A DNA stretch of 64,000 bases from Octopus vulgaris (Eukaryota): contig OX597822.1 of the NCBI GenBank assembly GCA_951406725.2, positions 8,742,001 to 8,806,000 on the forward strand. The letters run 5' to 3'. The notes under the pieces were generated by a model. It did no database searches and had not been told where the DNA came from. It saw nothing but the letters and a program-made list of their open reading frames with translations. Below, one piece after another: positions 22,275 to 30,210 of this stretch. Every line of letters starts with the position of its first letter. Position 1 is the first letter of the stretch. The translations under genes were made by a program, and so were the position numbers.

Positions 22275-22710
22275 ACATAACAATTATCCGGTTGCCATAA
22301 TAAAACTCTGAGTTTCGGATGTCGGGGTGGAAGTCTGCTCTGGCATCTCAGCAGTCATTAAGACAAACAAAAATGCTATGAAAATGGCCATTAAATAAAG
22401 GGAAAAAACCGAAGGGGAGAAAGTAAAGAAACGCTTAAAGAATTCGCGTAGGCGCGCATGGACATACATACACATGCGGTGGAGTGGGGGTATGTGAGGG
22501 GAAATGGGAGACGGGTGATGGCGGGACGTGTGCAGGGGAGAGAGCAGATGCACGATCCACGGAACGTGCTCTGGCAAGGGCGGTGTGGATAGTGGTGAGG
22601 GGATATCCACTTCGGATGAAGTGGCGAGCCATAAGTTGAGACACAATCTCAAAGTCATGGCTGTCACTGCAGATCCTGCGCAGATGGAGGAATTGAGAAC
22701 AGGGGAGGGA
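22275..22710 (-). mobile_element. Penelope-like element fragment: RT thumb region joined to a pseudo-LTR with a degenerate hammerhead
   Basis: Minus strand reads LPCSQFLHLRRICSDSHDFEIVSQLMARHFIRSGYPLTTIHTALARARSVDRASAL, a PLE RT C-terminal signature; downstream ctgctga-gatg..catc-cgaaac-tcagagt at ~22304-22356. Confidence 0.8.
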
Positions 22711-22729
22711 AATTATTATTATTATTGTT

Positions 22730-23492
22730 ATTCAGTAGTTTTATTTTTTTTATAGCGTGCTTTCACTTCACTACCGAGCACAGCTCTGTGTGCCTTGGGT
22801 ATGTGCTGTGATTTGTTGTGATGCTCTGATGGTTATTGTATGGAAAGTGTTCTGCGTAGGATGTGTGCAGTGCCCAGTAGTGCAATTTTCTGTATGTTAT
22901 ATGTGTTTGTAAGTCCTGGTGTTTTTGTTATGTATTTGTCTGAATATTTTTTTATCATGCCTAATGCACCTACTATGATAGGAATTGTTTCTGTTTTCAG
23001 ATTCCACATTCTAGTTACCTCTATTTCCAGGTCTTTGTATTTTGAGAGTTTCTCCATTTCTTTTAGAGACACGTTGTCATCTGCCGGTACTGATACATCA
23101 ATTAGAAAGCATTTTTTTCTTCATGGTCTCTGACAACTATATCTGGTCTGTTGGCCTTAATTTCTCTATCTGTGTGTATCGGCATATCCCAGAGTATGGT
23201 TGCTTTCTCGTTTTCTGTGACCTTTTCTGGTGTGTGCCTATACCATCTTTTTTCTGTTGTTATTCCATAATGTTGGCATAGCTTCCAATGTATGTAAGTT
23301 CCAACTCTGTCATGTCTGTGAATATATTCCTTCTTAGCCAGGACTGGGCAGCTAGAGATAATATGATTTATTGTTTCTTGTCCATCTCCACATATTCTGC
23401 AGTTACTTGTAATATTTCTTTTCATTACATGTTTTTGGTAATTTCTGGTGGGGAGGCTTTGGTCTTGTGCTGCAATTAAAAATCCCTCTGTT
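22730..23492 (-). mobile_element. Young 5'-truncated R4/Dong-like LINE 3' end (zinc knuckle + RLE + 3' UTR)
   Basis: CRICGDGQETINHIISSCPVLAKKEYIHRHD, NRPDIVV, EKLSKYKDL, IPIIVGALG, QKIALLGTAHILRRTL; flanked by (TAA)n/(GAA)n. Confidence 0.93.
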
Positions 23493-23493
23493 T

Positions 23494-23785
<292 letters not shown>

Positions 23786-23790
23786 TATTA

Positions 23791-23919
<129 letters not shown>

Positions 23920-23928
23920 TTATTATTA

Positions 23929-23985
<57 letters not shown>

Positions 23986-23990
<5 letters not shown>

Positions 23991-24515
23991 TAGTTTTATT
24001 TTTATTTTTATAGCGTGCTTTCACTTCACTACCGAGCGCAGCTCTGTGTGCCTTGGGTATGTGCTGTGATTTGTTGTGATGCTCTGATGGTTATTGTATG
24101 GAAAGTGTTCTGCGTAGGATGTGGGCAGTGCCTAGTAGTGCAATTTTCTGTATGTTATATGTGTTTGTAAGTCCTGGTGTTTTTGTTATGTATTTGTCTG
24201 AATATTTTTTTATCATGCCTAATGCACCTACTATGATAGGAATTGTTTCTGTTTTCAGATTCCACATTCTAGTTACCTCTATTTCCAGGTCTTTGTATTT
24301 TGAGAGTTTCTCCATTTCTTTTAGAGACACGTTGTCATCTGCCGGTATTGATACATCAATTAAAAAGCATTTTTTTTCTTCATGATCTCTGACAACTATA
24401 TCTGGTCTGTTGGCCTTAATTTCTCTATCTGTGTGTATCGGCATATCCCAGAGTATGGTTGCTTTCTCGTTTTCTGTGACCTTTTCTGGTGTGTGCCTAT
24501 ACCATCTTTTTTCTG

Positions 24516-24518
<3 letters not shown>
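23986..24518 (-). mobile_element. Second, shorter near-identical copy of the same LINE 3' end (RLE domain intact)
   Basis: ORF 24091-24444 NRPDIVVRDHEEKKCFLIDVSIPADDNV..EKLSKYKDL; same 3' UTR as the 22730 copy. Confidence 0.93.
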
Positions 24519-24574
<56 letters not shown>

Positions 24575-24629
24575 GTTGTTGTTCTTCTTGTTGTTGTTAC
24601 TTTTATTATTATTAATATTGATATTATTT

Positions 24630-25145
24630 TCTTCTACACTCAACCTATTAGACTAACATCGGGCTAGAACAAGTAAACTTGCTTGCCAAGAACCCTCTTA
24701 AGTATCGTAGCAGTCCCTAATAGCACTGATTTATGGAGCTGTACTGAACTGGGCTTGATGTATTTTTCCTCTATCCATCTGTACAGATTTTAGGGATAGT
24801 TCCCAATGCTCCTATAACTACTGGGATACATTTTACCCGCACTTTCCATAGTTTCTCTAATTCAATAGCTAGATCCTGGTACTTTTCAATTTTTTGCATA
24901 TTTCTCATAATTTTTCCATTACTTGGGACTGTAAAGTCAATCATCTGGGGCATTCTATTCCCTTTATTTACTACTACGAAATTAGGCTTTCTAGCTTCAG
25001 TCTGAACGTTAAAGCCCTAAAATATCTTGTATTTATTACTTTCTAGAACTTTAATAGATTTATGTTCATACCATCTATCAGTATGTTCAAATCAATATTC
25101 ACATTGTAATGAAGTTGGAATGTATAGCTCCTATTGCGCATGACC
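24630..25145 (-). mobile_element. Older R4/Dong-like LINE 3' fragment (RLE domain)
   Basis: IDFTVP..KIEKYQDLAIELEKLWKVRVKCIPVVIGALGTIPK; KSVLLGTATILKRVL. Confidence 0.82.
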
Positions 25146-27447: not shown

Positions 27448-27706
27448 TTTCACTGCTATAGCTATAAGCTACATCTGCCTCAAAACACAATCTGACCTAT
27501 TTCAAAAACGATCAGTCTTTATACAAAAGGACGAGATATTCAAGATGACGCAGCACCTCTGAGCACAGAACTTTTAAAGAGGGCTTCTTGCAGATCTTGG
27601 AAACGACAGTCATCTGTGAACATCTTGAAGTCGCATATAACAGAGAACTACATCAGCTACAGTATTAAGGGGCAGAGGTGTTAAGGATCATATATATATA
27701 TTTGTG

Positions 27707-28012
27707 TGGAGGCGCAATGGCCTAGTGGTTAGGGCAGCGGACTCGCGGTCGTAGGATCACGGTTTCGATTCCCAGACCGGGCGTTGTGAGTGTTTATTAA
27801 ACGAAAACACCTAAAGCTCCACGAGGCTCCGGCAGGGGATGGTGGTGATCCCTGCTGTACTCTTTCGCCACAACTTTCTCTCACTCTGTCTTCTGTTGGC
27901 CTGCTCGCTTAGCCAGCGAGGTGGCGTCATTTCAAGGTTAAACAATGCGAAGCGCATTGTGACCAGCGATGTGTAACAACATCTGATGGCCTGGTCGGTC
28001 ACGGTGATCACG

Positions 28013-28016
<4 letters not shown>
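27707..28016 (+). mobile_element. tRNA-derived SINE family C
   Basis: ggaggcgcaatggcctagtggttagggcagcggactcgc...ggtttcgattccc tRNA-like head; (cacggtgat)2 tail; second copy at 37475-37640. Confidence 0.85.
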
Positions 28017-28072
<56 letters not shown>

Positions 28073-28190
28073 AATCAAGGAACGGCCATAATAGGCCATT
28101 CACCCACTAGAAATAACAGCCAAAAGCTTTAACCGCAAAATAACATTAATACCGTAAACCAGGAGAAAATTGAAAAACTTTTACCCTGTA

Positions 28191-28297
28191 ATTTCTTAGA
28201 CGATGCACCGTTTCATCTACCGTTTAATGGTAAACTAACCTGATTAAATTAAATCAAGCCAATCCACCATAGGCCCTTAGACTCATCAGTAAGAAAT
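28191..28297 (-). ncRNA. Type I hammerhead ribozyme (inverted copy)
   Basis: Reverse complement of 28746-28852. Confidence 0.88.
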
Positions 28298-28745
28298 AGC
28301 CAAATCGGAACAGATATTTTTCACGAGGCATTCCTCTTGCTGCCTCGGCAATATCTGACCTAAAATTTTCAAATCGTCGCACTCGCGCCAAATTTATCGG
28401 CAGCAAATGAACCACCGATTCCGTTACGGAACTAACCAGAAAATTCATAATTAATCAATATAGGGTGGCAAAAAAATTTTGTAGAATTCTTTTGCCACCA
28501 GCGGCCTAGTAGGAAAAAATCAAATAGTCATAAACCATTTTTACGTTCAACATCACAATCAAGGAACGGCCATAATAGGCTATATTGATTAATTATGAAT
28601 TTTCTGGTTAGTTCCGTAACGGAATCGGTGGTTCATTTGCTGCCGATAAATTTGGCGCGAGTGCGACGATTTGAAAATTTTAGGTCAGATATTGCCGAGG
28701 CAGCAAGAGGAATGCCTCGTGAAAAATATCTGTTCCGATTTGGCT

Positions 28746-28852
28746 ATTTCTTACTGATGAGTCTAAGGGCCTATGGTGGATTGGCTTGATTTAATTTAAT
28801 CAGGTTAGTTTACCATTAAACGGTAGATGAAACGGTGCATCGTCTAAGAAAT
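28746..28852 (+). ncRNA. Type I hammerhead ribozyme, GUC cleavage after 28844
   Basis: Stem I atttctta/taagaaat; CTGATGA 28754-28760; stem II gtcta/tagat enclosing a long hairpin; GAAA 28829-28832; stem III cgg-tgca-tcg; TC. Confidence 0.9.
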
Positions 28853-29229
28853 TACAGGGTAAAAGTTTTTCAATTTTCTCCTGGTTTACGGTATTAATGT
28901 TATTTTGCGGTTAAAGCTTTTGGCTGTTATTTCTAGTGGGTGAATGGCCTATTATGGCCGTTCCTTGATTGTGATGTTGAACGTAAAAATGGTTTATGAC
29001 TATTTGATTTTTTCCTACTAGGCCGCTGGTGGCAAAAGAATTCTACAAAATTTTTTTGCCACCCTATATTGATTAATTATGAATTTTCTGGTTAGTTCCG
29101 TAACGGAATCGGTGGTTCATTTGCTGCCGATAAATTTGGCGCGAGTGCGACGATTTGAAAATTTTAGGTCAGATATTGCCGAGGCAGCAAGAGGAATGCC
29201 TCGTGAAAAATATCTGTTCCGATTTGGCT

Positions 29230-29336
29230 ATTTCTTACTGATGAGTCTAAGGGCCTATGGTGGATTGGCTTGATTTAATTTAATCAGGTTAGTTTACCAT
29301 TAAACGGTAGATGAAACGGTGCATCGTCTAAGAAAT
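29230..29336 (+). ncRNA. Type I hammerhead ribozyme, GUC cleavage after 29328
   Basis: Same sequence as 28746-28852, shifted by 484 bp. Confidence 0.9.
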
Positions 29337-29556
29337 TACAGGGTAAAAGTTTTTCAATTTTCTCCTGGTTTACGGTATTAATGTTATTTTGCGGTTAAAG
29401 CTTTTGGCTGTTATTTCTAGTGGGTGAATGGCCTATTATGGCCGTTCCTTGATTGTGATGTTGAACGTAAAAATGGTTTATGACTATTTGATTTTTTCCT
29501 ACTAGGCCGCTGGTGGCAAAAGAATTCTACAAAATTTTTTTGCCACCCTATATTGA

Positions 29557-29593
<37 letters not shown>

Positions 29594-29748: not shown

Positions 29749-30007
29749 TCTCTCTCTTCTCTATCTAGCAAGTGCTAATGACTGTGTCGGTAACCACTAT
29801 TGCAAACAAGGCATTTGGGGAAAATTCCTGCGGAGATGAGGACTGTGAGTATTCTTCTATAAAAACGGATTAAAACACTAAATTAGAACAGAGATGCTGA
29901 AAATTCTGGCAGACTTGAGTCACTGATTTTTCATTGGAATAAAAGTCGCAAACGACACAATGAACGACGCAGATACAAGTTGCATCTAATATATCACAGT
30001 GATTAAG

Positions 30008-30210
30008 GCAGTGAGCTGAAAGAATTGTTAGCATTTCGAGTAAAATGCTTAATGGCATTTCGTCCGTTATGAGTTCAAATTCCGCCATGGTCGACATCGC
30101 GTTTCAGCTTTCAGGATCGGTAAAAAAAGAGCCAGTTGAACAGCGGGGTCGATGTAATTGACTTGACTCCTCCCCTGAACTTGATGGCCTTTTGCCAAAA
30201 TATTGAAATC
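30008..30210 (+). mobile_element. SINE family B, diverged
   Basis: ggcagtgagctg..aaatgctta..gagttcaaattccgcc..ggggtcgatgtaattgact. Confidence 0.72.

Follow-up and report, generated by a model that had tools for sequence, protein, structure and literature searches.

The element described here lies in a 64-kb window of the Octopus vulgaris genome (contig OX597822.1, positions 8,742,001 to 8,806,000 of the forward strand); the window is the whole stretch of DNA that was analysed, and coordinates below refer to it. An array with a period of 484 nt and 100% identical units occupies 28580-29564 (985 nt) and adjoins an inverted arm at 28068-28580, which matches exactly over 513 nt, or over 516 nt if a single mismatch close to the junction is allowed. 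(TA)n tracts border both sides, (AT)27 at 28016-28069 and (TA)14 at 29562-29589. When the monomer is numbered from the base after the predicted cut (position 1 = 28845), the plus arm comprises positions 220-484, 1-484 and 1-236, and the minus arm positions 103-484 and 1-131. The preliminary description had reported three apparently identical 484-bp units, two in tandem on the plus strand and one inverted, within (TA)n. The identity, the orientation and the TA surroundings are borne out, but the arms are permuted rather than composed of whole units, and the locus holds only one monomer that extends from cleavage site to cleavage site. The features of the locus are as follows.

28016..28067, no strand: left half of the (TA)n target tract
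28068..28580, minus strand: inverted arm, truncated at the 5' end and made up of monomer 103-484 followed by 1-131; it finishes 3' at 28068, on the 'short' fixed end (position 131)
28191..28297, minus strand: type I hammerhead of the inverted arm, core start at 28289
28580..29564, plus strand: tandem arm of 2.03 units, terminating 3' at the 'long' fixed end (position 233-236), where the last bases merge with TA
28746..28852, plus strand: type I hammerhead 1, predicted cut after 28844
28845..29328, plus strand: non-coding 484-nt monomer bounded by the two predicted cleavage sites
29230..29336, plus strand: type I hammerhead 2, predicted cut after 29328
29426..29447, plus strand: conserved hairpin 1 (monomer 98-119), a candidate RT recognition element, 12 nt upstream of the short fixed end
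29460..29564, plus strand: 'tail' of ~105 nt separating the two fixed ends, present in one arm only
29512..29547, plus strand: conserved hairpin 2 (monomer 184-219), a candidate RT recognition element, 14-17 nt upstream of the long fixed end
29565..29589, no strand: right half of the (TA)n target tract

The monomer has a GC content of 37.8%, and the longest stop-free frame in the circularised unit spans 66 aa, leaving it without protein-coding capacity. No reading frame for RT plus GIY-YIG, as an autonomous Penelope-like element (PLE) would carry, was found in the unit or in the fetched arms. The predicted circular fold of the monomer amounts to -146 kcal/mol (z -5.5 versus 40 shuffles), with a z of -3.6 for the minus strand. 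Abundant SINE-like repeats with very high summed contig depth occupy 27700-28015 and 30000-30160, and the first of these terminates in the TA tract that took in the retrozyme. On the minus strand, 22833-24633 contains duplicated C-terminal fragments, interrupted by ATT tracts, which we take to resemble a non-LTR retrotransposon with a restriction-like endonuclease.

Three hammerhead cores are present in the window (+28754, +29238 and -28289); in all of them stem I measures 8 bp and the triplet reads GUC. The topology is type I in tandem units, as opposed to the type III motifs within two LTRs by which plant LTR retrozymes are defined. The motif had been called canonical; the type I arrangement and stem I stand, but stem II spans 68 nt and is closed by a G-U pair (a trait of subfamily A, the group to which the window copy belongs), and stem III is a short palindrome. 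Rfam returned no match in the window at gathering score. The search with hammerhead models proposed earlier did recover Hammerhead_1, at 22 bits (E 0.041) against a cut-off of 34, the score falling short because stem II is long. Rfam matches to miRNA and pestivirus families in the window were discarded as noise from the TA tract or a hairpin.

Support for the ribozyme comes from a comparison of 11 sequences representing five subfamilies, in which stems I-III (15 pairs, 150 cells) are paired in 95.3% of the 150 cells and show two-sided changes in 8 of the 15 pairs. Slid registers are 30-45% paired, and 0 of 500 shuffles reach the score, a count that is not a probability because the sequences are related and the structure was derived from the window copy. 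Of 101 full subfamily-A units, 99 have an intact core, and many subfamily-C copies carry the core CCGAUGA. Stem III is palindromic in subfamilies A, B and C, with a calculated energy of ~0 kcal/mol as a hairpin versus -13.6 to -17.5 kcal/mol as a homodimer. These modelled energies suggest dimeric cleavage, as described for axolotl retrozymes (PMC7229834). The active hammerhead fold lies 3.8 kcal/mol above the minimum-energy fold of the monomer; in Xenopus, eight of nine predicted retrozymes are reported not to cleave in vitro (10.64898/2026.07.22.740005). A consensus fold of positions 1-256 from seven sequences retains both hairpins, with a two-sided change in 1 of 52 pairs, and structure outside the hammerhead is for this reason weakly supported. 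Unrelated small type I hammerhead motifs were also seen in the repeats flanking five other loci (L163, L168, L171, L173 and L178), some of them at several loci, and L199/L200 contain a two-copy repeat of ~237 bp with a hammerhead-like core and a palindromic stem III that does not match the 484-nt unit.

A search of the genome with the monomer yielded 219 matches, distributed over 40 scored loci out of 831 candidates. The 40 were picked as the best full-length matches to subfamily A (hits of at least 89% identity, with two older neighbouring pieces dropped), and nearly all full-length matches at them are 97-100% identical to the monomer. Exact matches to a 34-mer number 2,695, and matches to its subfamily-B variant a further 586, with 0 occurrences of reversed-pattern controls, so that the 2.8-Gb genome contains at least 3,281 exact motif copies. 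The dispersed, permuted and TA-flanked copies that the preliminary description proposed to look for are present. Unit length in the family is 484-494 nt, with up to ~7 units per array in subfamily A and 10 in subfamily B. Subfamily B is ~89% identical to the monomer, and subfamily C (2,349 candidates) ~72-74% over the aligned part. With a degenerate hammerhead pattern, 22 hits were obtained (control, 11); older subfamily D/E forms were found at 8 of the 11 loci inspected from these 22, and no PLE ends were recognised among the 11. At least five subfamilies of differing age show that the family has long persisted in this lineage. At locus L066 (2958-4391), a subfamily-A arm adjoins an older two-armed subfamily-C insertion and uses its terminal TA tract. 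Assembled contigs from four runs, tentatively taken as RNA, cover the unit, but DNA carry-over from thousands of genomic copies would look alike, and the coverage speaks neither for nor against transcription.

The identity of the three units had been read as a sign of recent insertion. The insertion is young, but the units of any insertion start out clonal, and their identity therefore dates it weakly; youth is shown better by the 97-100% identity between loci. With its tandem units, lack of coding capacity and of an LTR pair, and dispersed multicopy distribution, the element is very likely what it was first proposed to be, a young insertion of a non-LTR retrozyme. The class is known, and the family did not turn up in the literature searched.

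The anatomy of insertion was analysed in 66 arms at the 40 subfamily-A loci. The 3' ends of 64 of these arms fall at one of two fixed sites ~105 nt apart, and the remaining two are interrupted by an N gap or a contig end. The short end (position 128-134, ~131) is used by 30 arms and the long end (position 224-240, ~235) by 34. Two-armed head-to-head insertions account for 26 of the 40 loci, with the inverted arm 5'-truncated, and all 24 that could be scored combine one short with one long end, including three in which the second arm measures only 24-56 nt. The same pairing is seen in 6/6 two-armed loci that were read for subfamily B and in 4/4 loci of subfamily C where the pattern recovered both ends. 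TA adjoins 62 of the 64 ends. A hairpin precedes each fixed end by 12-17 nt and is kept in all subfamilies, with almost no two-sided changes.

An inverted arm combined with two fixed 3' ends is the 'tail' signature of PLEs, the feature that tells most about the locus, and one which the preliminary description had not included. In published PLE insertions, a 5'-truncated copy lies in inverted orientation and only one end carries a tail (PMC8557442). For an anole PLE, this layout is explained by RT starting at two internal sites past the hammerhead, together with nicks in both strands of an AT-rich target (PMC11167929). Published PLE tails measure 30-40 nt (PMC8557442), compared with ~105 nt in the retrozyme. 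Mobilisation by PLEs had been put forward from general knowledge of the class; given the fixed ends, their pairing and the adjoining TA, we are highly confident that a PLE enzyme mobilised the family.

The same observations bear on whether the array could be an assembly artefact, that is, a collapsed or duplicated repeat or a fold-back read. Perfect identity of three units together with an inverted repeat would be typical signs of such an error, but a fold-back would not give different fixed ends on the two arms, the end rule recurs at 24/24 loci and in three subfamilies, and the internal junction differs from locus to locus. With 219 matches at 40 scored loci, each with its own junction, the structure is neither a chance pattern nor an artefact, and we consider the latter scarcely credible.

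Two active-looking PLE groups were found in this genome. The first is a Neptune-like family with 781-codon RT plus GIY-YIG frames, TA targets and a 30-nt tail. Its copies were seen at L101-L118 (for example L104, 1744-6990, with a 479-codon upstream frame and the 781-codon RT-EN frame), and its pLTR contains a hammerhead-like motif, common to several related families, in which UUGAUAA replaces CUGAUGA. The second is a very young, high-copy Hydra-clade family (L219, L220, L203-L218) with 17,634 candidates, near-identical copies and intact 717-codon frames bearing RWK, DKT and CxCX5C motifs. Pfam and PDB searches with the Hydra-clade protein gave no recognition; its RT region matches the Neptune-like RT (E 2e-7), and by eye it shares long peptide stretches with Hydra-1_Obim, to which it is related yet distinct. 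The fixed ends of the Hydra-clade element are set in TA, at distances of 33 and 106 nt downstream of its type I hammerhead cut, which gives a 73-nt tail. One fixed end per arm was found in 7/7 scorable pairs (eight fetched).

No homology between the unit and PLEs was detected in 50 GIY-YIG loci, two full Hydra elements and 22 Hydra-type 3' ends, a small sample relative to the 6,136, 17,634 and 7,204 candidates, and the unit motifs are absent from the supplement text of PMC8557442. The Neptune-like 781-codon family was rejected as a source of the unit, with which it has no common sequence and from which its 30-nt tail differs. A 53-nt match near GIY-YIG at L073/L119, tried as a PLE end, is actually a separate short subfamily-B arm in TA. 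The Hydra-clade PLE shares no detectable sequence with the units, so that its part in their mobility is inferred, and the use of TA targets by the Neptune-like family as well leaves room for another driver. The Hydra clade is favoured by its long tail, its canonical hammerhead, the long stem II in other Hydra-type ends, and the ATTGT that precedes the short end in both elements; we regard it as the likeliest driver, with slightly more confidence than doubt. On the minus strand of the window, 22283-22730 represents the 3' end of another PLE-like fragment, with the core CUGCUGA. Over 53 nt around this hammerhead-like motif it is 79% identical to the hammerhead end of the Hydra element, and its upstream peptide gave no match to the Hydra protein. 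It is possible that PLE lineages share ribozyme modules.

The units might alternatively be orphan pLTRs of an autonomous PLE that entered the genome as single copies and multiplied on the spot through unequal crossover or slippage, as proposed in 10.64898/2026.07.22.740005. Homogeneous units would also be expected from local amplification, and the Hydra-type pLTRs of this genome carry hammerheads with a long stem II (43-93 nt). In Xenopus, 21 of 57 retrozyme families are reported to be homologous to PLE ends (10.64898/2026.07.22.740005), whereas no pLTR homology was detected for the octopus family and no homologous PLE was found in the small sample of PLE families. At none of the 40 fetched loci do the units continue into an ORF; the arms begin at TA or at the opposite arm, and no LTR pair is present. 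Tandem units occur on both inverted arms with private variants in common, and multi-unit arms keep RT-type ends on both sides. Local amplification of orphan pLTRs is therefore improbable, and reverse transcription of the units by a PLE enzyme is the reading pursued below.

The 5' ends of the arms provide a view of the template. Positions 1-31 contain 14 of the 66 arm 5' ends where 4.2 are expected (binomial p 6e-5; any-window p 0.008, the 31-nt window having been chosen after the data were seen). A second cluster, of 11/66 at positions 163-192, has no explanation; microhomology with the target may contribute to the clusters, both of which are AT-rich. Among head-to-head junction spacings sampled in order of position, 9 of 19 in subfamily B agree with both arms having stopped close to the cut (P 2.5e-7, none shorter), and in the corresponding subfamily-A sample 3 of 21 spacings fall in the cleavage-site window (P 0.11). 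Clustering at the predicted cut suggests that cleavage occurs in vivo, and the ends piled up there show the cleaved linear RNA to be often the template. Short reiterated filler, as from repeated re-priming, was seen at the head-to-head junctions near the cleavage site in L141, L150 and L144.

Full units of one locus differ from each other by 1.2 substitutions, and those of different loci by 3.8. At 6 of 40 loci, nine variants in total are confined to a single locus and present in every unit that covers the position, at four of these loci in both arms; of the other unit variants, 80 occur in a single unit and five are partial. The window's own 162G is present in 3/3 covering units. Its 27-mer is found at seven places genome-wide, and the other two loci that carry it are different haplotypes, 91% and 96% identical. 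Arrays mixed at family-wide variants comprise five partial cases as well as those with a 6-nt insertion in L036, L056 and L058, and may reflect polishing error or template switching. Variants fixed across all units of both inverted arms are most simply explained if one monomer RNA was copied repeatedly. This upholds one part of the earlier proposal that the tandem copies arose by reverse transcription around a circle, namely that a single monomer was read again and again; repeated end-to-end jumping on a cleaved linear monomer fits the clonal units as well as a circle does.

The same element could be served by the same PLE enzyme with no circle, from a cleaved linear monomer re-read by end-to-end jumps or from a linear oligomer that incomplete cleavage of a homogeneous source array had left, a reading that we hold tentatively, at less than an even chance. 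Even arms that contain several full units can have their 5' end at the cleavage site (L067, L054, L048, L036 and L045), both arms stop at the first cut in many subfamily-B insertions, and a dimer-dependent hammerhead with the stem III energies given above could leave oligomers behind. A linear oligomer alone, however, cannot fix a new variant in all units, and a monomer bottleneck is needed at some step. The only private both-arm variant that is not in all units, 429C at L067, is out of register between the arms, which also speaks against this reading. Circles are, moreover, reported as the main form of the coral, mussel and axolotl retrozymes (PMC7229834), and by analogy with these published data we lean modestly towards circle formation by the octopus monomers. 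In the anole PLE, uncleaved RNA is the main substrate (PMC11167929).

The element resembles the metazoan non-LTR retrozymes (Cervera & de la Pena 2020, PMC7229834; Li, Clavereau & Pollet 2026, 10.64898/2026.07.22.740005) in its tandem non-coding units with one type I hammerhead each, low GC, thousands of dispersed copies, co-occurrence with PLEs and, as in axolotl, a dimer-type hammerhead (PMC7229834). Its unit length is above the 150-450 bp given in the first of these sources and within the 51-972 bp given in the second. In the accessible portions of both, cephalopods do not appear, nor is there a description of TA targeting, of inverted arms, of a pair of fixed 3' ends or of copies that begin at the cut site. 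With Hydra-clade PLEs (Craig et al. 2021, PMC8557442) the family shares the (TA)n target (also used by the Neptune and Naiad clades), a type I hammerhead near the 3' end, the inverted 5'-truncated arm and the tail at one end, but it lacks RT and endonuclease, and its tail of ~105 nt exceeds the 73 nt of the local Hydra element. The anole Poseidon element PAc (Frangieh et al. 2024, PMC11167929) is similar in having two internal RT starts downstream of the cut and an AT-rich target of which both strands are nicked and extended. PAc is, however, autonomous, its hammerhead is dispensable in vitro, and no RNA reads are reported to end at the cut, in contrast to the clustering of 5' ends at the predicted cut in octopus genomic copies. 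The Chlamys elements, such as MRC1, are likewise non-autonomous PLE passengers with multicopy head-to-tail insertions, but their 3' sequence is generally also found in an autonomous family, and most are described as having no canonical hammerhead (PMC8557442). A search of the openly accessible literature yielded no retrozyme from a cephalopod, nor any account of retrozymes with PLE tails or with 5' ends at the cut site. The link between retrozymes and PLEs is known as a proposal; we did not find in print a demonstration of it from insertion sites.

Overall, we conclude with good confidence that the family is a non-autonomous hammerhead-bearing retroelement, a non-LTR retrozyme, that borrows a Penelope-like RT/GIY-YIG protein. 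In the proposed cycle, the tandem arm would be transcribed and its hammerheads, which probably work as dimers held together by the palindromic stem III, are predicted to cut out 484-nt monomers. A host ligase would close some of these into circles, a step modelled on the mussel, coral and axolotl retrozymes and judged somewhat better than an even bet. The putative PLE protein would then nick both strands of the (TA)n tract, with RT starting at ~131 and ~235, one start per strand, and each RT would either halt at a cleaved 5' end or go on around the monomer for up to ~10 turns. That the two cDNAs are joined 5' to 5' is shown by the head-to-head layout. It is conceivable, and offered here tentatively, that a self-cleaved, host-circularised 484-nt RNA is recognised solely through its two hairpins by a dimer of the non-homologous Hydra-clade PLE, primed twice and copied round in both directions of a nicked TA tract.

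How animal retrozymes move has been an open question since 2020; the case for PLEs was built on their co-occurrence with retrozymes, on hammerheads common to both and, in 2026, on frog families homologous to pLTRs (10.64898/2026.07.22.740005). The octopus family adds evidence from the insertion sites themselves: the PLE tail rule, TA targeting, clonal units and 5' ends at the ribozyme cut. The same genome holds a young and intact Hydra-clade RT-endonuclease that obeys the same end rule, and the pair makes testable the mobilisation in trans of a non-homologous RNA, the use of a circular template and the role of the hammerhead in vivo. If the fuller reading is true, with a circularised RNA copied by the Hydra-clade protein, the enzyme and the template of animal retrozyme mobility would be identified, a matched young RNA and intact enzyme would be at hand for rebuilding rolling-circle retrotransposition in vitro, and the arrays would constitute a fossil record of the full retrozyme cycle.
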